From Thermoleophilia bacterium (lineage in GTDB: Bacteria > Actinomycetota > Thermoleophilia > Miltoncostaeales > Miltoncostaeaceae), in contig JBFWNT010000018.1 of the NCBI GenBank assembly GCA_050250915.1, positions 6,591 through 70,590 on the forward strand: a stretch of DNA of 64,000 nt. Direction: 5' to 3'. The first letter of the stretch is position 1. Each line of letters starts with the position of its first letter. The position numbers and the translations under genes are program-made. The notes beneath the pieces were generated by a model. The model had not been told where the DNA came from. It made no database searches and saw only the letters and a program-made list of their open reading frames with translations. This document shows, in pieces, positions 12,789-60,673 of the stretch.

Positions 12789-15700
12789 ATGACCGTACCG
12801 CCCCCGTTCGCCACCCAGCCGCCTGCCGGCCTCCCGGATCTGATCGAACACGACGCCTGCGCGCTCGCGGCCTTCGCGACGCGTGACGGCTCGCCGAGCC
12901 GACGCATGGTCGAGATCGCCCTGACGTCGCTCCAGATGATGGTCCACCGCTCCGGGAGCGTCGATGGCGAGGGTGACGGGAGCGGACTGCTCGTCGACCT
13001 CCCCCGGCCCCAGTGGCGCCGCCGCCTGGAGTCGGAGGGCCTCGACCCGGCCGCGGCCGACGACAAGGCCTTCACGGTCGCCCACATCTTCTTCGACACC
13101 TCCGAGGACGCCGGGGCCCAGGTGCCGCGGATCGAGGAGATCCTGCGCGACCACGGCTTCCAGGTGCTGTGGAGCGGCGAGGGCACGGTCGACCGCTCGG
13201 CGCTCGGCCCCCGGGCGTCCGAGACGCCGCCGATCTTCTGGCAGATCGCCTGCCTGGCCGACGAGCCGGGTCCCGAGGCGTCCATGAACTGCTACCGGGC
13301 GATGGTGCACATCGAGCGCGACCTCACCTGTCACGTGGCGTCGTTCTCCGCGAACGACGCCGTCTACAAGGTGCAGGGCCAGCCCGAGGTGATCCCGCGC
13401 TTCTACCCGGAGATGGGCGAGGAGGACTTCGCCTCGGCGCGGATCATCGCCCACAACCGCTACTCCACGAACACGTACCCCACGTTCAGCCGGGTGCAGC
13501 CGTTCTCGATCCTCGGCCACAACGGCGAGATCAACACCATCGCCCAGCTCCGCGAGCAGAGCGAGCAGCTCGGCCTGCCCATCTCGCGCCTCGGCTCCGA
13601 CTCCCAGGACCTGAACCGCCTGCTCGAGGGCCTCATCTTCGAGAAGGGCCTGTCGCTGCTGGAGGCCGTCGAGTTCGCGCTCCCGCCGATCCTCGGCGAG
13701 GTGCACCGCCTGCCGGCGAAGCTCCAGGACCTCTACGTCCACTACCGCGAGGCGCTCGGCCCGTACGCGCAGGGCCCCGTGGCCCTCGCCTGCCGCGCGA
13801 AGGACGAGATGGTCTTCGCGGTCGACGCGATGGGCCTGCGCCCCCTGTGGTGGATCGAGACGGGCGACATGTACGTCGTCTCGTCGGAGCCGGGGATCAT
13901 CCCGGTGTCCGAGCTCACCCGTGACCCCGCCCCCCTCGCCCCCGGGGAGAAGGTGGCCCTGGTCGGCGACGCCGACGGCGTGCCGCGGGTGCTCGACTAC
14001 TGGGAGCTCCAGCGCGAGGTCTACAACCGCGCCAAGGGCCGCGGCGCGCTGCCCAGCGCCGAGACCCGCGCCCGCCTCGCCGGCGGCCTCGAGCCCGTCG
14101 CCGTCGAGGAGGTCCCCGACGACGACCTGGCCGAGCCGGAGCTCGAGCTGGAGACCCTGCTCGCCTCGGCGGGCTGGATCGAGAGCGACCGCCAGCAGCT
14201 CCAATTCCATGCCGACCGCGGCGCCGAGCCGATCGGCTCGCTCGGCTGGGACGGCCCCCTGGGCCCGTTCACCCCGGTCCCGATGCCGCTCTCCGACTAC
14301 CTCCAGGAGACCGTCGCCGTCGTCACCAACCCGGCGATCGACCGCGAGCGCGAGGTGGAGCACTTCTCCACCCGCGTCGTGCTCGGCCGGCGGCCCCCCA
14401 TCGAGGGCGTCGAGCCGGAGCCGCCGCAGCGCTGCGAGCTGCGCATGCCGATCATCCTCGGCGGGATGCGGCCCGGCACCACGCCGCTGTCGCTGCCGGA
14501 GATGCGCCGCGTGGCCGTGGGCCAGGGCGTCGCCTGCATGGAGGACGTGCTCGCCGCGTGGGACTGGCGCGCCGCCACCCTGCCCCTGCACTTCCCCGCC
14601 GACACGGGTGTCGCGGACCACCTGACGCACCTGGCGGAGGCCGCGGTCGCCGCCGTCCAGACCGGCGCCGAGCTGCTCGTGCTGAGCGACATGGCCGCCG
14701 GCCCGGACGACAAGGTGTGCGACCCGCACCTCGCCGTCGCCGCGGTCGACAAGGCCCTGCGCGAGGCCCGCAAGGACGACGGCTCCTCGTGGCGCCGCGA
14801 CGCCAGCCTCGTGCTCCAGGCCGCCGGCATCCGCAACGTCCACGACGTGATGGTGGCCCTCGGCTTCGGCGCCCAGGCGCTGTGCCCCTACGCGATGATG
14901 GAGCGGGCGGTCAACGACTCGCCCGAGCCGTCGAAGGCCGCCACCAACGTGCTCGAGGGCCTCCAGAAGGGCATGGAGAAGGTCCTCTCCACCCTCGGCA
15001 TCCACGAGCTGCGCGGCTACGGCCGCCTGGTGTCCGCCATCGGCGTCGCGCCGGAGGTGCTCGACATCCTGGCGATCCCGGGCTTCTGCGCCTCGGAGGG
15101 CCGCGGCCTGGACCTGGCGGCGCTCGACGCGCTGGCCGAGCAGGGCCGCGAGATCCGGGCGGGCGAGGAGAGCCCGTCGAAGGTGAAGCTGCCGCGGATG
15201 TACCCGAAGGTCTGGAAGGCGCTCGCCCGCGTGGCGAACGACGAGTGGACCTACGACGAGTACCGCGAGGCGCTCGACAAGCTCGAGGTGGAGCAGCCCG
15301 TGGCCCTCCGCCACGCCGTGCAGCCGCAGCTGGCGCCGGAGGCCGAGCGGGTCCCCGCCGACCAGGTCAGCTCCCGCGTCGGCGAGCACACGCTGCCGTT
15401 CCTGATCAGCTCCATGAGCTTCGGCTCCCAGGGCGAGACGGCGTTCCGCGCCTACGCCGAGGCCGCCGCGCAGGCCGACATGCTCTGCATGAACGGCGAG
15501 GGCGGCGAGATCCACGACATGTACGGCAAGTACCCGAAGCACCGGGGCCAGCAGATCGCCTCGGGCCGCTTCGGCGTGTCGTCGCTGCTGATCAACTCGT
15601 CCGAGTGGGTCGAGATCAAGATCGGCCAGGGCGCCAAGCCCGGCGAGGGCGGCCACCTGCCGGGGTCGAAGGTGACCCAGGCGATCGCCGCCGCACGGAA

Positions 15701-30935: not shown

Positions 30936-31007
30936 TCCTCGGTAGCTCAATGGTAGAGCATCCGGCTGTTAACCGGAGGGTTGCAGGTTCGAGTCCTGCC
31001 CGAGGAG
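30936..31007 (+). tRNA. tRNA-Asn (GTT)
   Basis: Cloverleaf: TCCTCGG/CCGAGGA acceptor, GCTC/GAGC D-arm, TCCGG-CTGTTAA-CCGGA anticodon arm, GCAGG-TTCGAGT-CCTGC T-arm; CCA not encoded. Confidence 0.97.
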
Positions 31008-31008
31008 T
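30982..31008 (+). repeat. att core, left copy (3' end of tRNA-Asn)
   Basis: TGCAGGTTCGAGTCCTGCCCGAGGAGT, identical to 60647-60673. Confidence 0.95.
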
Positions 31009-47420: not shown

Positions 47421-48689
47421 CTACGTGAGCGCCCTCTTCACCTCGCGCCGGGAGAGGAAGTCGATGACGTCCTGGTAGCGGCCGGCGGTGTTTGCGAACT
47501 CGGCGTGGTTGCGCGCAGATAGCAGCCATTCGGCGGTGGTCGGTCGTGCCCGCGAGAGCGCTCGGCGCAGGTGGTCGTCGGAGACAGGAATGGTCGTCCC
47601 CGAGTTGATCGCCTCCTCGATCGCCAGGTCGACCGCCGACTCGACGAGGTGGGTGAGGTCGGCGCCGCTGAAGAGCGCTGTGGCCTCGGCCACGGGAACC
47701 ACGTCACCAACCTCGTGGGGGCGGCCGGCGAGGGCCAGCGACAGGAGGAAGCGGCGCGCCTCGAGATCGGGTGGTGGCACGAAGAGCTGCCGGTCGAAGC
47801 GGCCCGGGCGAAGCAGGGCGTCGTCTATGTCCCATGGTGTGTTGGACGCGGCGAGCACGAGCATGCCGTCGTTGGCGGAGTCCAGCCCGTCGAGCTCTTG
47901 GAGGAGCACCGTCACGAGTGCGCGGCCGTCCGCCCCGGCGCGCCGGGAGCGCGAGAAGGCGAATGCGTCGATCTCGTCGATGAAGACGACGCATGGGGCC
48001 GCGGCCCGTGCCTGCTCGAACGCGTCGTGGAGGGCGCGCTCGCTCTCGCCCATGTAGGGCGAGAGGATCTCCTCGATGCGGATCTGGCGGAAGGGAACAC
48101 CGCACTCGCCTGCGGTGGCGCGAGCGAGGAGGGTCTTGCCGCAGCCGGGAGGTCCGTAAAGCAGCAGGCCGGCTCCTGCGCGCCGGCCGTATGACGCGTA
48201 GAGGTCGGGTCGGGTGAAGGGGAGGATGATCGCGCGCTCGATCGCCTGCTTCGGCTCCTCGTTGCCGGCGACCTGGGCGAAATGGATCTCCTCGCGCTCG
48301 GCCCGAGGTCGCTCAACCGGATGTTCAGCCGCCGCGGAGCGGAGCGCGTCGAGCTCCCCGTCGGCTGGTCGGCGCGCGAGATCGGCGTCGGCCAGCAGTT
48401 GCCGGAGCCGGTCGCGCACCGGACCGAGCGCCGGGTCGCCGGAGGCGGCGCCGTCGACCAGGCGACCGGCGACCTCGAGGTCACCGAGGTCGATGGCGAG
48501 CTGTGCGGCGAGCGCGCGCTGGGCAGCCGACAGCGCCCCCCGGCCGTCGGCCTGGAGGAAGGCCTCGAGCGACTCCGCCCGCCGGCCGAGGTCGGCCAGC
48601 AAGTCGCCCAGCAGGCCGATGAGGACTCCATTTGCGGGGTCCGCGGCGAGCGCCCCGCGCAGCGCCGTGATGCGGGGGTCTTCACTCAC
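47421..48689 (-). CDS. TPR-like domain + AAA ATPase (classic clade)
   Basis: GPPGCGKT, VVFIDEIDA, ASNTPWDID.ALLRPGRFD; GTG 48689 overlaps the upstream stop. Confidence 0.92.
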   Translation of the reverse strand: MSEDPRITALRGALAADPANGVLIGLLGDLLADLGRRAESLEAFLQADGRGALSAAQRALAAQLAIDLGDLEVAGRLVDGAASGDPALGPVRDRLRQLLADADLARRPADGELDALRSAAAEHPVERPRAEREEIHFAQVAGNEEPKQAIERAIILPFTRPDLYASYGRRAGAGLLLYGPPGCGKTLLARATAGECGVPFRQIRIEEILSPYMGESERALHDAFEQARAAAPCVVFIDEIDAFAFSRSRRAGADGRALVTVLLQELDGLDSANDGMLVLAASNTPWDIDDALLRPGRFDRQLFVPPPDLEARRFLLSLALAGRPHEVGDVVPVAEATALFSGADLTHLVESAVDLAIEEAINSGTTIPVSDDHLRRALSRARPTTAEWLLSARNHAEFANTAGRYQDVIDFLSRREVKRALT

Positions 48690-49561
48690 GTTCGCTCTCG
48701 TCGGGCGAGGATGCGAGGCCAGAAGCGGCCGTAGGCCCACAGGAGCGCCACGGCTGCGAAGCCCCCGATGGGCAGGAATCCGGCCGCCGTCGTCCCGATG
48801 GCGAAGGCGGTCACCCAGGGCCACGCCCCGAGCCAGTCCCGGCGGTGCATCTGGCGGATGAGCCAGGTGGAGCGGCGATCGAGTCGCCGCAGCTCGCGGG
48901 CGTGGTCCGTGATCTCTCTGTCTCCCGGCCGTCCTCGCGCCGCAGACACCGCCGCGTCCCGTGCCTCCTCGAAGCGCCCTTCGGAGAGGGCGCGATGAGA
49001 GTGCATGTGAAGCGCGCCCGGATTCTCCGGATCGGCGGCGAGCAGTGTGGCGAGGTGCCGATCGAGCTCCTTCGCCTTCGCCCCCGCCGCCGCCGCGAGC
49101 GCGACCTTCAGCCCGAGCAACGTGGGCTCATCGGGTGCCTGCCGCAGGGCGCGGTCGAGCATGTCCGAGGCGTGCTCGTGCTCACCGCCGCGGCTGAGGA
49201 TCATCGCGTAGGTCGCAAGCGCCTGCGGATGGTCGGGGAACTCATGAAGCAGCCAGCGGGCGATGTCCTCCGCCTCGGCGAGACGCCCGAGCTCGGCGAG
49301 CAGCTCTGCTCGGAGCTGAAGGAACTCGGGCTCATGTGGCCATATCGCCAGCGCGCGGGCGGTGCCATCAAGCGCCCGCGCGGCCTCGCCACAGCTCCAC
49401 ACCGCGCGGATCCGCATGTCCCACCACTCCGGGCGGGCGCTCGCCTGCCTGTCGGCGCGGACGATCTCGTCCAGCTCGCCAAGCGCGAGGCGTCCATCGC
49501 CACGCGCGAGGTGACGCCCCGCCTTCTGCAGGCCGAGGTCGAATCCGATGGCCGGGCTCAC
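48686..49561 (-). CDS. TPR-repeat protein with C-terminal TM helices
   Basis: Repeated ALAxxPxx helical pairs; GTG 49561 overlaps the upstream stop. Confidence 0.82.
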   Translation of the reverse strand: MSPAIGFDLGLQKAGRHLARGDGRLALGELDEIVRADRQASARPEWWDMRIRAVWSCGEAARALDGTARALAIWPHEPEFLQLRAELLAELGRLAEAEDIARWLLHEFPDHPQALATYAMILSRGGEHEHASDMLDRALRQAPDEPTLLGLKVALAAAAGAKAKELDRHLATLLAADPENPGALHMHSHRALSEGRFEEARDAAVSAARGRPGDREITDHARELRRLDRRSTWLIRQMHRRDWLGAWPWVTAFAIGTTAAGFLPIGGFAAVALLWAYGRFWPRILARRERT

Positions 49562-51680: not shown

Positions 51681-52223
51681 CGACGCCCCGCCGGGAGCTA
51701 CACCTTCGCCGAGCCCCCGTGCCCGCCGGCGGGCAGCTCGACGGTGACCGTCGTGCCCCGGCTGGAACCGCTGCTCACCCTGAACGTACCTCCAAGGCCT
51801 CGCCTCCCGGGCAGCACTGGCGTTGCCTCCGCGGCGGGCACCACGGATCAGAGGCGAAGAGTTCCGTTCTATACGGCTAGTCCTCTACGCCTGCGGTTCC
51901 CTCCCGCCATTCCAGGGAGGGTCTCGAGCGGCTTGAGAGCTGGGGCAGGCCGGGCGCAATTGCCTCCATGTCCGCCAAGAGCTCGACGCGAGCGACGGTG
52001 TCAAATCAGGTCGTCCGCAAGCCGCGAAACCTCGTCGGCCAAAGCCCGCCTGCGCTCCTCAGAACCCGTCACAGCACAAGCCGGCCTGCCCGCTCCAGGC
52101 CCCGGCAAGGAGGCCGGTTCGTCCGAGGTGAAAACACCCAGCCATCTGGCAGCAGGGGTCTCCCGAAGCAGAACTCTGGCCCATCCAATGGTCATATGGC
52201 ACAGAAATGGTCCATCATCAGCC

Positions 52224-52853
52224 ATGGACCTCGGCGCCCCTCACCGGATCATCAGCGGTCGCCACGACCTCGACATCGTTCGCGTGCTCGTCGCCTCGCG
52301 AGGGAGCATGAGCGGTCGTCGGGTCGCGCGTATGGCCGGCGTCTCCCACGGGACCGCTCAGCGTGTGCTGACTCGCCTCGCTGACGCCGGCCTGCTCGAT
52401 GTGGAGACCGTCGGCCGTGCCTACGCCTATCGATTCAACCGAGATCACCTTGCCGCGGGAGCAATCGAGTCCCTCGTCGCGCTCCGGCCGCGCCTCATAG
52501 ACGCCCTCCGCCTGGAGATGGAAGGCCTCTCCCCCGGCCCGCGCGCCGCGGTCGTCTTCGGCTCCACCGCGCGCGGCGATGGAGACATCGACAGCGACAT
52601 CGACATCCTCCTCGTCCGCCCACCGGGAGCCGCGGGCGGCTGGGATGACCAGCTCGCTGCCACATCTGAACGGATCCGGCGCATCAGCGGCAACCACCTG
52701 AGCATCCACCTCATCGACGAGGAGGCCTTGGAGCAGCTCGAGCACGACCGGCCGCCGATCGTCGGTCAGATCAGACGCGATGGGGTCGACCTGGCTGGAA
52801 CACCGATCCGTGACTTGCTGGGGCCGGGATCCGCACGGGGCGGCGCCTTTTAG
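52224..52853 (+). CDS. winged-HTH + minimal nucleotidyltransferase (MntA-like)
   Basis: MSGRRVARMAGVSHGTAQRVL (HTH); VVFGSTARGDGDIDSDIDILLV (GSxxxG..DxD). Confidence 0.9.
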   Translation: MDLGAPHRIISGRHDLDIVRVLVASRGSMSGRRVARMAGVSHGTAQRVLTRLADAGLLDVETVGRAYAYRFNRDHLAAGAIESLVALRPRLIDALRLEMEGLSPGPRAAVVFGSTARGDGDIDSDIDILLVRPPGAAGGWDDQLAATSERIRRISGNHLSIHLIDEEALEQLEHDRPPIVGQIRRDGVDLAGTPIRDLLGPGSARGGAF

Positions 52854-53014: not shown

Positions 53015-53551
53015 TCAATCCAGGAGCTCTCCGCGCAGGCGATCCAGTTCGGCTGCCGAGATCGGCCCGTGCTCGCGCTCCCACTCCGCGACCGCCTCAA
53101 GCGAGTCTCGACGCATCACCTCCCGCTCGACCACGGACTGGAGGAAGACGGCGAAGTCGCCATCCTGCCTCGCCACGACCAACGCGAGAGCGCGTGAGGC
53201 CACCTCCTCAGCCAGAACGAGCTCGATGACGAGACGGACCGAGGACTCTGATCCCGCCCCGCCAGACGATCTGGGCTCCTTGCCGGCGCTGCTCGCGCCG
53301 TCGGCGATGGCCCGCTCTGTGCGGGGATGCATCGGACCCGGCGGCGCCGGGCGCCTCGCGTAGTGCTCCTCGTCCTCCTCGGCCCGGAGCACGAGCAGGA
53401 CGTCGCCGACCGGCTCGCCGTCCCGATAGGCGTCCCCGTTGGTGATGGTCCGAGCGCTAGCGGGCCAGTCCAACTTGTGGAGCAGCGACCGCAGGTTCCT
53501 CCGCGAGAGGGTGACCACCACCAAGGGATCCTTGAGCTCGAGGCGCGCCAC
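53015..53551 (-). CDS. hypothetical two-domain protein (C-terminal part CopG/antitoxin-like)
   Basis: N-part VTLSRRNL..LLHKLD..RAEEDEEHY..PGPMHPRTE; C-part AVAEWEREHGPISAAEL. Confidence 0.6.
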   Translation of the reverse strand: MARLELKDPLVVVTLSRRNLRSLLHKLDWPASARTITNGDAYRDGEPVGDVLLVLRAEEDEEHYARRPAPPGPMHPRTERAIADGASSAGKEPRSSGGAGSESSVRLVIELVLAEEVASRALALVVARQDGDFAVFLQSVVEREVMRRDSLEAVAEWEREHGPISAAELDRLRGELLD

Positions 53552-53609
53552 GACTCCACCCGGCTATTGAGGGACACGAGCAAACGCCCGGGCGCCTTCA
53601 GCGTCACGG

Positions 53610-53647
53610 TGTTGACAGTCTGATCAACAAACTGGGAGGGTGTCAAC
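53610..53647. promoter_or_regulatory. inverted-repeat operator / divergent -35 region
   Basis: GTTGACA (53611) / TGTCAAC (53641) inverted pair plus TGTTGA/TCAACA (53610/53624), between divergent genes. Confidence 0.5.
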
Positions 53648-53706
53648 CCCCTCTCCCCGCGCCGACCCGTGGTCGGCGGAAGCAGCCCAGCCATCGTCAC
53701 CCGTCG

Positions 53707-56700
53707 ATGCCAGTTCGAGTGCCCACTCCGAGACCCAGCTGCAGCGGCGTCGCCTGGCTTGAGACCGATGAAGGCTTCCTTGACGCGGTCCTCGCCGCCT
53801 CCGCGAGTGGTCAGGTAGAGAGCTGGATCCATGGAGCGGATTCTCGGGATCGGGAGCCCTCCGAGGCCCCGAGCGCGGAGCGTCTCGTCGCCCGTGCAGT
53901 CGTATCGATCCTGCTGAGGCGCCCCCTCCCCGGGTTCAACCCGCTTCTGTCCTGGCACGCCGGCCCCGGTCACCCAGGAGCGCACGACGGGCTCGCACAG
54001 GTGAGCGAGCCGCTGAGCTACAGGGAGGTGGGGCGCCTCATCTGGACTGGGGTGGTGACCGACGGACCCGCCGGGCGTCGCCGCGAACGACCGGTAGCCT
54101 CGTTTGGCTACCCGGTGGTGCGACGCCGCGAGAAACGAGCGGCCGGGCCGAGCACGCATCGACAATCATGGGGTGCGGACCCGAAGGCCATCGTGAGCGA
54201 GGCGCCACGCGCGCCCCGGCGTCGCCCTGGGCGAGGCGGCCGCCAACCGCGGGTCTCTGCCTTCACGGAGGCGACGGCAACCGCCCAGCTTCGCGCGGAG
54301 ATCGGCGAGCCAACGGTCGGCGAGCGCCGCCAAGGAACCGGCTTCATGTACTGGCGACTCTCAGAGAGCGGCAGCGGGTTCGCGCTCGCACGCCTGTCGG
54401 GCGACGAGATTCGAAAAGGGGAAAGCGCGCTGAGCCAGGTCCAAGCAATCTGGCACACGGCCTCCCAGTTCGAACTCAAGCTCGGCCATCTCGTGGTCAC
54501 CACCAACAGCACGGGAGCCCGACGCTTCGAGTACCGGCCTGATCTCCTGCTCCTCCACGAGCTGATCGCCAACGGAGAGGTTGACGCGGTGTGTGCGCGT
54601 GGCGTGGACCGCATCCACCGAAACGACCTGGTCCGAGCCCAGCTCGAGGATCTGTTCATCAGCAGCGGGACACAGCTCTACCTGTCCCAGTTCGGGCACC
54701 TCGACTGGATACGCGATCTCCACTACTGGCGGCGCAAGAGCAACCAGGCCGAGGAAGAGCGCGACGACATCTTCAGCCGGACCCACGGCGGGATGATCGC
54801 GACCCGCCTCGCGGAGGGGCGCGGACGCCCCGGCGCGCTTCCCTTTGGCTTCTACTACAACCCCGAGTGCGGCGAGGTCGTCGTCGATCCCGAGCAGTGG
54901 CCGTTTGTTGTGATCGTCCACCGCGGCTACGAGGAACTGCATGAGGAGGGCGCGACAGGGGGCCTACGACGCCTCGAGGAGAAACTCGAGGCACTCGGGT
55001 GCCCGATGTCGGTCGGAATGATCGCGAACATGCTGCGCAACCCGATCTACGTCACCGGCGAATACACGGTCTCCTGGAACGGGCGGCAGGTCACGGCAAA
55101 CCCGATCAAGATCGCGGCGCCGATCCCGCTGGAGCTCTTCCAGCGCAACCAGGAGCGGCTCGCCCTGAACACGGGCCGACACAGCGTTACCCCTGTCGGG
55201 TTCCTCGCTCTGAATGGAGTCGAGGTCATCCACGACCGTTGCCAAGACCTCCCCGTCGCGAAGGAAGACGCCGCGAAGTTGCCCCGGACATGCACGTCCC
55301 TGGTGCTGCGCGGCAGGCCCACGAGCAGCGCGGACGGTTACGTCTACAGCCACTACCCACGCACCCCCGGGAGCTGCCGCGGGATGGTCATCCCGCAGAA
55401 CGTGCTCGAGCCCACAGTGATGCGGGCCCTTCGCCAGCTTGCCGCCAATCGCGAGCTTCAGGAGCAGTGGCGACGAGCTCCGCGTGGCGATCCAGCCGAG
55501 CGGCCACGGATCCTCAGCCCTGAGGCACGCACCCAGGTGGAGTCGGAGCTGCGGGACCTGGGACTGCTCATCGAACACCGCGAGGCGCGTTGGAGCGACC
55601 CGAAGCATCCTGACTCGCAGATGACCGCGAGCGAGTTCTCGAAGATCATCTCCCCTCTCCATGAGAAGCGGGAGCGGCTGAAGCGGCGCCTCAGAATGGA
55701 CGACGTCCTTGACCCCACGCCTCCGGTCACGCCGCTGGAGAAGGACATGGGCGCGATCGCGCGCGCGGCCGGACTCGACGACGAGAGCACCTACGGGGAA
55801 CTGCTTGAGAAGCTCGAGGAGGTCCTCACGGACGAACCACCGGATGACCCTGATCACCTGCGCCGGAGGGCAGCGGTGGTCAAGGCCTCCCTGAGCTCCA
55901 TCCTGATCAAGGACGCGCCCGATGGCTTCACCCTCGAGCTCAGGGGTCCGCTGGTCCCGCCGGGAACGAAGGTCGTTGGTCCGATCGGCCCGATCGCCTC
56001 CGATGGGGGAGCCCTGAAGCCCACCTCCTCCCCGCGTCGCCCGCCATCCGAACTGTCAAGCACGTCCTGGCGTGATGGACAGTTCCAAGATGACGAGGAG
56101 CCGCTCGATCACCGGATGGTGACCACGACCTACTGGTCCACGCCGGCGGCGCAGCGGCCTAAGCCCCTCAGGCCGAAGAGGATTGCGCGGCGACCTCGGC
56201 TCGACTGGACTCCCCTCTGGGTGTCCACACCCATCTCCTTGCCCTGCCCGGACGCCTCACGCCCACCGGAGGCCACCCCGCGCGAGCCGTGGTCGTCCTC
56301 GGATCAGGACGTCGCGAAGGAGGCTATCCGCGTCTCCATTCGGTTCACGGGCCGTGGTTGTGGGTTCAACGAGACGACCTACGCTCGGGTCCGCAGGGCG
56401 CATCCGGAGTTGCCGACGTACGCTTTCGTCGAGCGCGCTCGCCGGAACAGCTGGAAGAGCTGGCCCATCTTTGTCGGTGAGGCGATCGGCGAGGAGATCA
56501 ACGACCTGCCGCTCACGGACCTCGCGCGGGATAGGCGCGAGCTGTTGAGGCTGCGCAGCGCCGCAAGGACTGGAGCCCTCCGCACTGTGAAGTGGGGCTC
56601 GTTCCACTACACGCGCCAAGAATGGGTGGATGAGTTCAGGCCGAAGCTGCTCCGCCCCCGATCTCGGGGACCGTCGGGTCCCCCGCCTCCCTCTCGACCG

Positions 56701-56727
56701 CCCCTTCGAGGGCGCCCAAAGAGGTAG
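53707..56727 (+). CDS. large serine recombinase with N- and C-terminal extensions
   Basis: YWRLS (catalytic Ser), RPDL..GVDRIHRN, LPFGFY, MLRNPIYV..APIPLELFQ (Recombinase domain), coiled coil. True start may lie nearer 54250-54346. Confidence 0.85.
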   Translation: MPVRVPTPRPSCSGVAWLETDEGFLDAVLAASASGQVESWIHGADSRDREPSEAPSAERLVARAVVSILLRRPLPGFNPLLSWHAGPGHPGAHDGLAQVSEPLSYREVGRLIWTGVVTDGPAGRRRERPVASFGYPVVRRREKRAAGPSTHRQSWGADPKAIVSEAPRAPRRRPGRGGRQPRVSAFTEATATAQLRAEIGEPTVGERRQGTGFMYWRLSESGSGFALARLSGDEIRKGESALSQVQAIWHTASQFELKLGHLVVTTNSTGARRFEYRPDLLLLHELIANGEVDAVCARGVDRIHRNDLVRAQLEDLFISSGTQLYLSQFGHLDWIRDLHYWRRKSNQAEEERDDIFSRTHGGMIATRLAEGRGRPGALPFGFYYNPECGEVVVDPEQWPFVVIVHRGYEELHEEGATGGLRRLEEKLEALGCPMSVGMIANMLRNPIYVTGEYTVSWNGRQVTANPIKIAAPIPLELFQRNQERLALNTGRHSVTPVGFLALNGVEVIHDRCQDLPVAKEDAAKLPRTCTSLVLRGRPTSSADGYVYSHYPRTPGSCRGMVIPQNVLEPTVMRALRQLAANRELQEQWRRAPRGDPAERPRILSPEARTQVESELRDLGLLIEHREARWSDPKHPDSQMTASEFSKIISPLHEKRERLKRRLRMDDVLDPTPPVTPLEKDMGAIARAAGLDDESTYGELLEKLEEVLTDEPPDDPDHLRRRAAVVKASLSSILIKDAPDGFTLELRGPLVPPGTKVVGPIGPIASDGGALKPTSSPRRPPSELSSTSWRDGQFQDDEEPLDHRMVTTTYWSTPAAQRPKPLRPKRIARRPRLDWTPLWVSTPISLPCPDASRPPEATPREPWSSSDQDVAKEAIRVSIRFTGRGCGFNETTYARVRRAHPELPTYAFVERARRNSWKSWPIFVGEAIGEEINDLPLTDLARDRRELLRLRSAARTGALRTVKWGSFHYTRQEWVDEFRPKLLRPRSRGPSGPPPPSRPPLRGRPKR

Positions 56728-57119
56728 GCGAGCGTCACCTCATACCCACCCACGAGCGCCGCTGCGAGGGTCACCGTAAGTTGACGGCTCCGATTCGAGT
56801 CGAAGGAGTCGAGGATCTTCCCCAGCGGTGCGGCTGGGAGAGGGCCAGGGATCGCGCCTGCGGAGGCAGGCGCGACGCGAACCCGCTGACCGGCTGTAGG
56901 CCCCCGCGGCCCACCGAGGTGTCAAGGTCGAGGCGCGCCAAGGGGCGGCGACGGCGCTCATCCTCCGCGGAATCGCTCTCGCCCACGCTACCCGTTTGAC
57001 AGCGGCCACGGCGCCCCAAGCCTTTCGTCGGACGGGTCGGCCCTTGGAGAGATCGGCTGTCCGGTCAGATTCTTACCCTGCTGCGTATGGCAACCGTCAC
57101 GGACTGGACCCTGGCGACC

Positions 57120-57803
57120 ATGGCTGGGAAGAAAAAGAAGCCCAAGGTCTTCGTCGGCCCGCCGGAGGCCCAGTGGAGATTCCTGGTGGTCGTGGTGTCC
57201 GTCATCACGCTGTCTGGACTCGTGGCTGTTCTCGTTCCCCGTACTCTGGCCTGGTTCGAGCGACACGATGGCTTCGCTTCGTTCGCAGGAGCGGCCGTAG
57301 CTCTGCTGGCTGTCTTCCTCTCCTTTCTCCAGGCACGCTCAGCGGAACGACGGGCGGAAGCCGCAGAAGGCCGAGAGCGAGACCAGGCGCAAAACCAGCT
57401 TCGAGCCGAGATCGGAGCGATCCTGAGTCCGCTCCCACTCCAGGCCGCGACGACGCCAGACGGTGGCTACTTCCTCATCCGGGTGTGGAACATCGGCCGT
57501 GGTCCCGCCCGCAACATCACAGCCGACGCCAAGGGTCAGGTCTCGGGTGTCTCACTGGCCCCGACCGGCTCAACCTCTCACGAGCAGGTCGCTGGACGAG
57601 ATATGCCTGGCGCTGGCATCGCTCCCTTCTGCGAGTTCCGTTTCCAGGTGCCCAAAGGCTCGATCATCGTGGACCAGAACGAGAAGGTCTCGGTTGAGAC
57701 CTTCAAGGTGACGATCACTTGGGACGACAACCTCGGGTCAGGAGAGGTCGTCTACCAGACAACGGGCCACCCCGGGCACTCACCGACTCCGTTCATTCTC
57801 TAG
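57120..57803 (+). CDS. hypothetical membrane protein (two TM helices + beta-rich domain)
   Basis: MAGKKKKP.., two hydrophobic helices, LIRVWNIGRGPARNI. Confidence 0.7.
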   Translation: MAGKKKKPKVFVGPPEAQWRFLVVVVSVITLSGLVAVLVPRTLAWFERHDGFASFAGAAVALLAVFLSFLQARSAERRAEAAEGRERDQAQNQLRAEIGAILSPLPLQAATTPDGGYFLIRVWNIGRGPARNITADAKGQVSGVSLAPTGSTSHEQVAGRDMPGAGIAPFCEFRFQVPKGSIIVDQNEKVSVETFKVTITWDDNLGSGEVVYQTTGHPGHSPTPFIL

Positions 57804-57889
57804 ACGGATCGAGAGGCCCGAGGGAGACTCTGCGGCCTATCGGTGCTCCTGATGCAGTGGGTGCAAGCAGAACCGCACGCCACAGGACG

Positions 57890-58423
57890 TCTGTAGTCGC
57901 ACATCATCAGGAAGCTCCGGGTGATCAAAGGGGAGTCCCTGAGGCGATCTGTCTGGACTGGGAGCGCCGTGGGGTGAAGACCGCGACTGGCCAGAGCGCC
58001 TTCCACTCGGCCAACCTGAAGAAGATCCTGATGCGTTGGCGCTACGCAGGCATCCGAGAGGACCTGGGTGAGCCCGTGGGGCCCGCTGTGTGGCCAGCGA
58101 TCGTGACCGAGGATGAGCTTCGGGCCGTGCGGGCGACCCTAATGACCGACGAGAAGCGGCCCTACCTCTCCCGCACCTACATGCTCAAGGGGCTGCTGGT
58201 CTGCGGTCAGTGCGGCCACAGGATGCAGGGGAACTACGGCTCCAAGGGTCTGGTGCGTTACCAGTGCCAAAAGCAGGCGAACATCACGGCCTGTGGCAAG
58301 ACCACCGTCCAGGCCCGCTACTTGGAGCCCTGGATCTGGGAGCAGTTCTACGGGCGGGTCGACAAGGACGACCTGGCTGGCGCCGGCGATCCTTCGCTCA
58401 GCGCGCAGGCGGCCTCAGACTAG
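57890..58423 (+). pseudogene. truncated large serine recombinase (Recombinase + zinc ribbon only)
   Basis: IIRKLRVIKGESLR /frameshift/ AICLDWERRGVKT..KKILMRWRYAG..WPAIVTEDE..LKGLLVCGQCGHRM..YQC..C; no catalytic domain or coiled coil. Confidence 0.8.
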
Positions 58424-58880: not shown

Positions 58881-60098
58881 TCACGTCGTCCGCCGATCAC
58901 GGCCCTCATCGAAGAAGCGGATCACGTCCTCGCGAAGGATGACGAGAGGCGCGACCGGCTCGTTGGGAAGCACGTGGGCGTAGACCCGATGAAGACTGGT
59001 GAGGTTCGAATGGCCTGCGATGTCCCGGACCATCGCGTCGGGCACGTTGGCGGCCAGCAGGCGTGAGAGGAAGCGGTGGCGCAGGTCGTGGGGGCCGATC
59101 GTGCTCGGCAGGCCGGCGGCCTTGCTCGCCCTCATCATCGCCTTGTAGATGCTGTTGTGAGTGAGGGGGCCTCCGGTCCTCGGGTGAGGAAAGAGCAGTC
59201 GTTGGCCTCGGGACGGCGAGAGGTCGAGGAGAGGGATCAGCGGTGCGAGTTCCCGGGTGATCGGGATGAACCGGTGTCCGGCGGTCCCGCCCTTGGTCCT
59301 CGGGATCCAGATGCGCCCCCTGGCGACGTCGACGTCAGCACGTCGGATGCCCTTCAGCTCGCAGAAGCGGACCCCCGTGAGGGCCATGAACATCACCGGC
59401 TTCAGATGGGGGCTCGGCAAGGTTCGGCCAGGGCGATTGCGCAGGTGCTCGAGCATCGCCTCGACCTCCGCGTGTGTCGGGCAGACGGAGCCGGCCGCAC
59501 CGTCCTCATGGATCTCGCTCGCGGCGGGCCCTCGTGCCTTCTTCGCCCAGCGTAGGTTGCGGCTGTCGGCGGGGTTCGGCTCGATGTCGAAGCGGCCAAG
59601 CGCACTGCGGTACTGGCCGAAGTACTGAGCGCGAGTGCTCGGCGCAAGGTGCAGGTTGGCAAGGTGCCAAGCCTGCAAGTCCTGCCAGCGCATCTCTTCG
59701 ATGAAGATCGAGCCGAGCTCGCCGAGGTTGGCGATACCGTTCCTCCAGTTGCGCACCGTCTCCGGGGCCAGACCCACTCGCCTCTCCTCAAGCGTCTGCT
59801 CAAGGGCTTGGAGCAGGGGCGTCCCGACTGCCTTGATGGGTTCGCGCGGATCCTCACCGGCCGCGAGCCGGAGGCGGATCGCGTCCCGACGAGCCTTGGC
59901 CTCGCGCATGGTGGAGAAGGTGCCGCCCGTGAGCGGCTTGCTCCCCCGACCGCCCACGCGGTAGCGGACCACGTAGCGGACGTCAGTCAGCGGCTCGGAC
60001 CTGCCCGCCTGGGGCCGGCCCGTCCGGGCGGTCAGGCCGCGGGTGACCCACTTGCCGCTCGGGTCCTTGCCCCTTGTGAGGATGTGTGCGGAGCCCAT
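58881..60098 (-). CDS. tyrosine integrase
   Basis: TGVRFCEL (R), TKGG (K), HDLRH (HxxR), AGHSN (H), RVYAH (Y); ATG 60098 overlaps the Xis-like stop. Confidence 0.95.
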   Translation of the reverse strand: MGSAHILTRGKDPSGKWVTRGLTARTGRPQAGRSEPLTDVRYVVRYRVGGRGSKPLTGGTFSTMREAKARRDAIRLRLAAGEDPREPIKAVGTPLLQALEQTLEERRVGLAPETVRNWRNGIANLGELGSIFIEEMRWQDLQAWHLANLHLAPSTRAQYFGQYRSALGRFDIEPNPADSRNLRWAKKARGPAASEIHEDGAAGSVCPTHAEVEAMLEHLRNRPGRTLPSPHLKPVMFMALTGVRFCELKGIRRADVDVARGRIWIPRTKGGTAGHRFIPITRELAPLIPLLDLSPSRGQRLLFPHPRTGGPLTHNSIYKAMMRASKAAGLPSTIGPHDLRHRFLSRLLAANVPDAMVRDIAGHSNLTSLHRVYAHVLPNEPVAPLVILREDVIRFFDEGRDRRTT

Positions 60099-60322
60099 CA
60101 GCGGGCCTCCGGCTGGGTCTCGCAACTCCGGATGAAGGCGAGCACCTCGTCGCGGTAGGCGTAGACCTTGCGCAGGCCGGGGATCCGCACGAGCGTGACG
60201 CAGCGGAAGATCCGCTCCGCAGTGGCCTCTGCGACCCCGAGCTCGTCCCGCATCCGGCGCTGGTCGATCAGCGTCGGCAGAGGCGGCAGGGCCTCCTCGA
60301 TCGTGACTGCCGTATCTGTCAT
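60098..60322 (-). CDS. excisionase-like small DNA-binding protein
   Basis: 74 aa, LIDQRRMRDELGVAEATAERIF..RKVYAYRDEV, coupled to the integrase; AAGGAG RBS. Confidence 0.7.
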   Translation of the reverse strand: MTDTAVTIEEALPPLPTLIDQRRMRDELGVAEATAERIFRCVTLVRIPGLRKVYAYRDEVLAFIRSCETQPEAR

Positions 60323-60646
60323 GGCGGCTCCTTCGCCGTCGTCCGCGGGGTGGGATCAGTCCCTTCACCCCCTTGCGATTGCGAACGTACGACGCCCTTC
60401 GGCGACCGCTTGCAGCTAGCCGAAAGTCGGCCCGGACGGGCCGCCAGGCGCGCTTGGTCTCCCCTCCCACGAGGCGAGAAACAGGTGCCCCGTGGGCCTG
60501 CCTGACTAGGGTCGGCGCATGGACTACCCCGCCCCCTCAAGCCCCGCCAAGCCCCGCTGGCGTGATGTCCCAGTGTGTCCCCGGCCGTGCGTGGTCCTTC
60601 CGGGAAACTTCCCGGATGCAGGGGAAACAGAGAGCTCCGACGAGTC

Positions 60647-60673
60647 TGCAGGTTCGAGTCCTGCCCGAGGAGT
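60647..60673 (+). repeat. att core, right copy (displaced tRNA-Asn 3' fragment)
   Basis: Exact 27-bp copy of 30982-31008. Confidence 0.95.

Follow-up and report, generated by a model that had tools for sequence, protein, structure and literature searches.

Large serine recombinases (LSRs) are prized genome-engineering enzymes, and their choice of site is fixed by two DNA-binding domains. The LSRs Bxb1, PhiC31, the SPbeta-type enzyme 9dxd, Listeria LI/A118 and TP901-1 all follow the same domain order, and the recombination directionality factors (RDFs) of LSRs are reported to act through the junction between the zinc domain and the coiled coil, not through DNA (PMC11795197). According to a review, serine recombinases carry the catalytic domain N-terminally in every case except the IS607 transposases, whose DNA-binding domain is a MerR-type winged helix (PMC4058570). 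We here describe a gene at positions 53707-56727 (forward strand) of a 64,000-nucleotide stretch of Thermoleophilia bacterium contig JBFWNT010000018.1, referred to below as the window, that codes for a 1006-residue protein which, judged by its sequence, is a very divergent serine recombinase. It belongs to an unnamed, deeply divergent clade of LSRs, and we favour, with somewhat better than even confidence, the reading that it is an active enzyme whose conserved N-terminal head and modular C-terminal tail add DNA contacts.

Along its core the protein has the domain order of the known LSRs and shares their Arg-Ser nucleophile motif and DR..R motif, at 13-14% identity and with Pfam scores at or below threshold. 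Unlike them, it carries a conserved 218-residue extension before the catalytic domain and a 250-residue C-terminal addition with two small domains, and its zinc site reads H-x2-C ... H-x7-C in place of four cysteines. IS607 TnpA likewise combines a serine catalytic domain with a MerR-type helix-helix-hairpin-helix winged helix (PMC4058570); however, the winged helix of IS607 is N-terminal and is the sole DNA-binding domain of a protein without recombinase domain, zinc domain or coiled coil, whereas here it closes a full LSR at its very C-terminal end, and what precedes the catalytic domain is of another kind. The family is a second exception, after IS607, to the rule of the N-terminal catalytic domain. 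A search of the full-text literature returned no account of such an architecture, which is not proof that none exists.

A divergent LSR core between two conserved extensions

The open reading frame (ORF) at 53707-56727 contains 1006 codons (P0001) and zero internal stops, with 53707 as the earliest possible in-frame start; it is genuine and intact, which confirms the earlier observation. The gene is single-copy in its own 3.9-Mb genome, and its public annotation is a 793-residue protein that starts at M214 (P0002), which removes the N-terminal extension. A word-index search of 5.8 billion clusters, which also recovered this shorter call, yielded just four close relatives (975-1055 residues, 43-65% identity), and the alignment of the five proteins contains many invariant positions in the N-terminal ~215 and the C-terminal ~150 residues. 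Both extensions are thus conserved, so that neither is read-through junk: the N-terminal one, previously put at up to ~200 residues, measures ~218, and the tail is true protein as well. Codon-position GC content in both extensions agrees with this frame, and in the N-terminal one GC at third codon positions (GC3, 0.77) exceeds that at second positions (GC2, 0.57). Since the N-terminus is conserved and its GC content fits the frame, we conclude that the public call truncates it.

These observations contradict the idea that the extensions are artefacts of annotation or read-through around a real protein of ~540 residues. Such a view could appeal to the public start at M214 and to Pfam, which sees nothing outside residues 227-486; yet both extensions are conserved at the amino-acid level, fold with high confidence in structural models and keep the codon-position GC of the frame, and we consider the idea scarcely tenable.

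Searching the protein against Pfam retrieved a Resolvase match at residues 227-367, which scores exactly the curated cut-off (23.3 bits), and a sub-threshold Recombinase match (13.3 bits); NCBIfam gave merely a negligible match to CcrA. With E up to 1 allowed, Recombinase is found in 8 of 13 homologues, the strongest match having E 8.5e-4. We modelled the full protein with AlphaFold2 from a 108-sequence alignment (mean predicted local distance difference test score, pLDDT, 81.7; predicted template modelling score, pTM, 0.74). Foldseek aligned about 590 columns of this model to the full-length serine integrases 9dxh and 9dxd, Bxb1 (9iu2) and PhiC31 (9tep); identity was 13-14% and the lowest E 9e-12. 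VIA-align against 9dxd gave Z 13.2 over residues 219-751. The VIA-align match list for the full model is filled by the catalytic domain and the coiled coil and so informs on the core alone. These structural alignments place the canonical LSR at residues 219-756, and they bear out the original prediction that the core is complete, with catalytic, recombinase and zinc domains and the coiled coil all present by fold.

The catalytic domain with helix E spans residues 219-370 (54361-54816, forward strand), as delimited by the Resolvase match, fold and conservation. Its structural counterparts in VIA-align include Sin (5c31; Z 13.1, root-mean-square deviation, rmsd, 2.1) and TP901-1 (3bvp; Z 12.8). 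Residues R229 and S231, within ALARLSGDE, and the D301-R302-x2-R305 group, within VDRIHRND, are invariant or nearly so across 108 family representatives. The recombinase domain (RD, also called DNA-binding domain 1 or DBD1; residues 371-495, 54817-55191, forward strand) follows helix E; it is present by fold, aligning to PhiC31 4bqq (220-492) and to the LI integrase 4kis, in addition to the sub-threshold Pfam match. From the fold and the conservation of this core, the intact LSR of the window is predicted to be probably active.

The zinc domain (DBD2; residues 496-563 and 676-756) and the coiled coil embedded in it (564-675) lie at 55192-55974 (forward strand), and residues 357-756 as a whole align to the C-terminal domains of the LI integrase (4kis; 4kis 134-460). 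In the model the coiled coil contains helices at 605-630 and 641-667, and over residues 603-670 it superposes on LI 5uae with Z 8.6 and rmsd 1.5 across 62 residues. The zinc-ribbon cysteines had been taken for degenerate, a view that is not borne out. Putative metal ligands are present as H509-x2-C512 ... H549-x7-C557, where histidine replaces two of the four usual cysteines; across the 108 representatives C512, H549 and C557 each reach at least 90% conservation, while the five closest proteins all have H509, which two more distant members replace by cysteine. Because the ligands are conserved across the family, we read the site as a conserved His/Cys variant with putative metal binding, not as a decayed one. 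Pfam Zn_ribbon_recom finds no match in the 1006-residue protein.

An exhaustive phmmer search of 1.84 billion representatives returned 238 matches at E <=1e-3 and 109 at E <=1e-30. At 50% identity the family comprises ~240 clusters, mainly derived from metagenome assemblies, under generic annotations such as 'hypothetical', 'recombinase family protein' and 'Pin-like invertase'. Named members come from metagenome-assembled genomes (MAGs) labelled Dehalococcoidia, Alphaproteobacteria, Hyphomicrobiaceae and Thermoleophilaceae, and conservation of the extensions reaches across these different phyla; one of the four close relatives is annotated as a Dehalococcoidia MAG protein. A first scan of genome contigs for family members found nothing; a second one added three further, distant genome loci in MAGs labelled Solirubrobacterales and Actinomycetes. 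The core common to the family corresponds roughly to residues 165-760. Of 107 representatives, about two thirds have the N-terminal helix (61-80), and the tail positions are filled in one fifth to one half.

A conserved head and a tail of small modules

The N-terminal extension (residues 1-218; 53707-54360, forward strand) was delimited by conservation, the model, codon GC and charge. Its structured part is modelled as a strand (12-19), two helices (25-41 and 57-70) and two further strands (80-84 and 105-110). It is followed by a disordered basic linker (residues 121-186, net charge +14), and then by a helix (188-199) and strands (204-217) that run directly into the first catalytic strand (224-229). 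The pLDDT is 84-95 at residues 50-110 and 88-97 at 170-220. Pfam, NCBIfam, PDB-sequence and Atlas searches gave no match to this extension, and a word-index search of limited sensitivity found no free-standing head-like proteins.

Within the head, the basic motif RRPGRGGRQPR (residues 171-182; 54217-54252, forward strand) stands out by its conservation: 13 diverse homologues all keep G175, G177 and G178, and the consensus of the 108 representatives reads RPGxGGR. The RPGRGGRQPR motif lies ~50 residues ahead of the nucleophile Ser231. AT-hooks have an Arg-Gly-Arg-Pro-type core and bind the minor groove of DNA, and we take the motif to be AT-hook-like. By analogy it may bind the minor groove too, and its position and composition suggest that it could contact DNA near the crossover site.

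The tail begins with a disordered, Pro-rich linker (residues 757-862; 55975-56292, forward strand), delimited by alignments and by pLDDT <50, which holds a conserved DWxPxWxS motif at residues 833-840. Structure prediction was then run on residues 863-985 separately, with 20 sequences (pLDDT 88.7), and the model was compared by VIA-align with 48,161 representative chains, which split it into two domains. Module 1 (residues 863-929; 56293-56493, forward strand) consists of four helices of the helix-turn-helix (HTH) type, with pLDDT ~90 and a net charge of +3, and resembles LysR/TetR DNA-binding domains, e.g. 3szp (Z 4.0-4.8). The string WSS..EAI..TY..PELPT..SW (residues ~862-919), which had been likened to homing-endonuclease-associated repeats, lies largely in this module. 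The module does behave as a repeat, for it recurs in tandem in relatives (see below). Pfam lends the likeness no support and reports no family for module 1 or for homologues with 2-4 copies; the fold is a generic HTH-type helical bundle.

Module 2 (residues 932-985; 56500-56661, forward strand) holds the second string singled out earlier, PLTDLA..LRSAARTGALRTVK.G...TRQEWVDEF (residues 934-977). Its modelled topology is two helices, a beta-hairpin and a helix, that is, a winged helix of the Xis/BldC/MerR-N type, with a net charge of +6. Residues 932-988 superpose on the MerR-family protein 5xql with Z 5.1 and rmsd 2.5 over 55 residues; they also match the MerR-type TipAL, EcmrR, CvkR, BmrR, SoxR, TnrA and GlnR, as well as BldC, RacA, pSK1 Par and Pukovnik Xis. 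After re-ranking of Foldseek candidates, BldC 6amk came out on top (Z 4.7, rmsd 2.4, 49/51 residues), followed by Pukovnik Xis 4j2n (Z 4.3) and the phage DNA-packaging protein 7lwr (Z 4.2), while lambda Xis reached Z 3.9 (2ief) and 3.7 (1rh6) at ~20% identity and RdfS was a poor match (Z 3.0, rmsd 8.0). The superpositions span 47-51 of the 51-54 residues of the small chains at 14-21% identity. Lambda Xis, Pukovnik Xis, BldC and the MerR N-domains thus agree with residues 932-985 in fold and size; the excisionase and BldC proteins are free-standing, whereas this winged helix is fused to a recombinase.

The predicted Xis/MerR-like winged helix is therefore borne out at the level of fold, for the last ~55 residues. 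Searches of the tail against PDB sequences, NCBIfam and the Atlas returned nothing usable besides a weak HTH_17 lead, and when Foldseek was run with the tail model, no match had an E value under about 1. The lead consists of a Pfam HTH_17 match in the tail of one of 13 homologues (E 0.037) and of an Atlas feature search in which the named clusters nearest to module 2 were HTH_17/MerR_1 (0.86-0.87, to be read as a lead only). The HTH_17 profile does not recognise module 2 itself, although its fold superposes on known members.

Hidden Markov models of both tail modules, run with hmmsearch against all family proteins fetched, revealed that the tails of relatives are modular. Module 1 stands in tandem in many members, twice in P0054, P0068, P0042 and P0072 and four times in P0045, and the tail of the homologue at locus L002 has two matches to its profile. 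Module 2 was found in a smaller set (P0046, P0086, P0011 and P0055), with the order of the two modules reversed in P0086, and some family members end directly after the core. The homologue of genome G041 (locus L004) appears by eye alone to have repeated helical modules, which the module-1 profile does not match. Tail-swapping through an att site inside the gene, which we also considered, is not indicated; the gene is whole and its tail is conserved across phyla.

Because the number and order of the modules vary, we favour DNA-binding modules over a tail that serves a fixed protein partner; modules that read accessory sequence would be expected to differ in copy number and order, to be basic and to sit on a flexible tether. 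Our prediction is that the tail forms an array of DNA-binding modules and is not a fused RDF. In the latter case the tethered winged helix would dock on the protein's own zinc-domain/coiled-coil junction and set or switch direction, or auto-inhibit, and a separate RDF would be superfluous. In size and fold the winged helix resembles small excisionase-type proteins, and the 100-residue tether would permit intramolecular docking; moreover, the known RDFs of LSRs are small, structurally diverse and all predicted to bind the DBD2-coiled-coil junction (PMC11795197), and artificial integrase-RDF fusions exist as solved structures (9teh). That same junction, and not DNA, is what LSR RDFs are reported to bind (PMC11795197), whereas module 2 is basic (+6) like DNA binders. 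A permanently fused RDF would also abolish directional control unless it were regulated, module copy number and order vary, many family members lack the winged helix, and no free-standing tail homologue was found that could represent an ancestral separate RDF (word-index search, of limited sensitivity). We accordingly regard an integrase-RDF fusion as quite improbable.

Genomic setting of the gene and its homologues

The window has a GC content of ~75% that drops to 64-72% between ~31 and 60 kb. A tRNA-Asn gene (30936-31007, forward strand) overlaps, at 30982-31008, the left copy of a perfect 27-nt direct repeat made up of the last 26 bases of the tRNA and one more; the right copy lies at 60647-60673 (forward strand), next to a tyrosine integrase gene (58881-60470, reverse strand) with Arm-DNA-bind_3 and Phage_integrase domains. 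Together, the tRNA gene, the perfect repeats and the adjoining integrase define a 29.7-kb island, and the recombinase gene does lie inside a tyrosine-integrase island, as the original prediction had it; its interpretation as a whole is partly supported by our results. Insertion of the island is explained by its own tyrosine integrase.

Between the giant LSR and the tyrosine integrase lie ORF 57087-57803, the remnant of a canonical LSR and an Xre-type HTH gene. The remnant (57698-58423, forward strand) consists of the C-terminal half of a recombinase domain and a CxxC...C zinc ribbon, without catalytic domain or coiled coil; it matches Zn_ribbon_recom at 4.5e-12, the sole such match in the whole genome, and Recombinase at 0.014, and in tblastn it covers just residues 271-409 of a full LSR. 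This end of the island thus holds three recombinase genes, one of them dead, which fits accretion or nesting. A nested element around the giant LSR is plausible, given the decayed second LSR that adjoins it, though no boundaries were found. Most likely, the giant LSR is here a passenger, or a relic of a second element in the tRNA-Asn island. Relatives searched with the right part of the island or its right flank for an empty or LSR-less site gave nothing useful.

ORF 57087-57803 (forward strand, 238 residues) directly follows the recombinase gene. It has no Pfam match, a beta-rich C-terminal part and two N-terminal hydrophobic segments that by eye are likely membrane-spanning; it overlaps the start of the remnant's frame and may have displaced its 5' half.

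The sequences that flank the gene were examined for element ends. Upstream, the region 53538-53650 holds one copy of a 13-nt direct repeat, TCGAGGCGCGCCA (53538-53550), and an inverted repeat, GGTGTTGACA-n23-TGTCAACCCC, at 53608-53650, 57-99 bp before the start of the recombinase gene; the inverted repeat includes a TTGACA hexamer and could be a promoter-operator or a binding site. Downstream, the second TCGAGGCGCGCCA copy lies at 56928-56940. These are the only two exact copies in the window and they flank the gene, and one of the three occurrences of GGTGTCAA in the window falls in each flank, the one at 56918 directly adjoining the downstream TCGAGGCGCGCCA copy. At L005 (LNFM01004684), the closest homologue locus with context, a 12-nt repeat takes the equivalent position. 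Taken at face value, these repeats might bound a minimal self-mobile unit, a 3.4-kb, one-gene element (53538-56940) resembling a serine transposon and nested in the island. The statistics are marginal, however: one of 39 slid controls reaches the 13-mer result (P ~0.04), the L005 repeat has P 0.12, and 12-mers are frequent in slid controls. No equivalent flanking repeat was found at the four other loci, and the gene is single-copy in its genome. We therefore rejected the direct repeats as element ends and hold a self-mobile unit of this kind to be very unlikely.

None of the five homologous loci has neighbouring genes in common with the window. Our statements do not draw on genome G045, which is marked unpublished. 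At L005 a complete canonical LSR of 561 residues (13266-14951, forward strand) starts 260 bp downstream of the giant one, and it shares 23% identity with the window remnant over 139 residues. The other four loci lack such a partner, and we rejected the idea that giant and canonical LSRs form a conserved pair, seen as it was only at L005 and, as a remnant, here.

In G041 the homologue lies in a 27-kb island of low GC3 beside a tRNA-Pro gene (contig C38 ~134.8-162.2 kb; L004 9644-21656, L028, L029 1-2200). It starts ~215 bp after the tRNA and is the first gene, with ~100-215 bp between it and the junction. Three related genomes lose similarity exactly where the tRNA ends and a fourth does so at L004:9754, and synteny resumes ~37 kb downstream; all five related genomes that were compared vary at this site (5/5). 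At 27.4 kb downstream, where GC3 is back at host level, there is an imperfect copy of the post-tRNA sequence that includes a perfect 21-nt block. The cargo includes a CHAT-TPR-AAA protein (1565 residues), an rve insertion-sequence transposase, DarT and a JAB-domain protein. The outermost, tRNA-proximal position of the giant LSR is typical of an island integrase, but because this island also encodes an internal 284-residue tyrosine recombinase, a firm assignment is prevented. Just upstream of the homologue, L004 9761-9815 contains a perfect inverted repeat, TCGTGAGAGA-n11-TCTCTCACGA, together with a third CGTGAGA copy; these are candidate binding sites.

The two islands bear differently on the suggestion that the giant LSR is a resolvase, invertase or maintenance recombinase carried as cargo, whose extra domains would recognise accessory sites that make the reaction topologically selective. 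In the window the gene lies 4 kb inside an island with a tyrosine integrase of its own, it is adjoined by an inverted repeat and by repeated motifs, and no neighbours are common to the five homologous loci, all of which would suit a cargo enzyme. The G041 homologue, by contrast, stands at the very edge of a tRNA-adjacent island, and integrases and transposases are the enzymes that typically have a full LSR architecture with coiled coil; neither an invertible segment nor a pair of inverted sites turned up. On this evidence a cargo recombinase seems unlikely.

Other genes were noted in passing. Upstream of the recombinase gene, 51744-52853 (forward strand) is a 369-residue ORF with a MarR/TrmB-type winged helix (~176-245) and a nucleotidyltransferase domain (NTP_transf_2 / Polbeta, ~255-348), which looks like an MNT-like regulator or an antitoxin fusion. 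Also inside the island, 47421-49127 (reverse strand) codes for a 568-residue AAA+ ATPase (Pfam AAA, 1e-39), and the DNA of its ATPase core is matched at ~66-71% by several related genomes as well as by two further contigs of its own genome. The only other Resolvase-domain match in the genome (74.8 bits; contig C12 26875-27270, forward strand) lies in a 207-residue open frame, probably a small resolvase or invertase.

Proposed site recognition by an LSR with added modules

How might such a protein work? Catalysis would be that of an ordinary serine recombinase, in which Ser231 attacks the DNA, a tetramer forms and the subunits rotate. The recombinase and zinc domains would read the core site and the coiled coil would control synapsis. 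The small N-terminal domain, the basic linker and the RPGRGGRQPR motif could reach DNA near the crossover site, and the tail modules, on their flexible tether of ~100 residues, may bind accessory sequences beside the core site. Such accessory binding would lengthen or organise the recognised site, in a role comparable to that of resolvase accessory sites, lambda integrase arm sites or the MerR-type domain with which IS607 transposases bind DNA. What we observe is the gene, the folds of its core and tail, conservation and the modular tails of relatives; that the extensions bind DNA, that the enzyme is active and what it targets we infer.

Several points weigh against this reading. Z scores of the tail folds do not exceed 5.1, which is modest, expected for domains of 50-65 residues and within the range of common arrangements, although the matches are mutually consistent and span almost the entire chains. 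The tail of the window protein has no Pfam match, even when E values of up to 10 are admitted. Att sites were not identified, and support for recombination at such sites is positional, from the G041 island; the 13-nt repeat around the gene is barely beyond chance (P about 0.04). Both islands that bear a family member also carry a tyrosine recombinase, so that the LSR is no more than a candidate island integrase. Finally, family members were not found among IMG/VR viral contigs or in 40 related genomes, with context data that are thin.

Going one step further than added DNA contacts, the family may be a clade of serine integrases in its own right, one whose composite, extended site is read by means of one to four tethered HTH modules, with or without an Xis-type winged helix, and an N-terminal domain bearing an AT-hook. 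We put this forward tentatively, as a possibility that falls short of an even chance.

If the extensions do not bind DNA, the protein is simply a long, divergent LSR. If they do, nature would have built a modular targeting system upon an LSR chassis, and a clade with a pre-catalytic domain and a variable number of tethered DNA-binding modules would show how site recognition or direction can be extended. It would also add a so far unrecognised type of integrase to the annotation of islands and MAGs.

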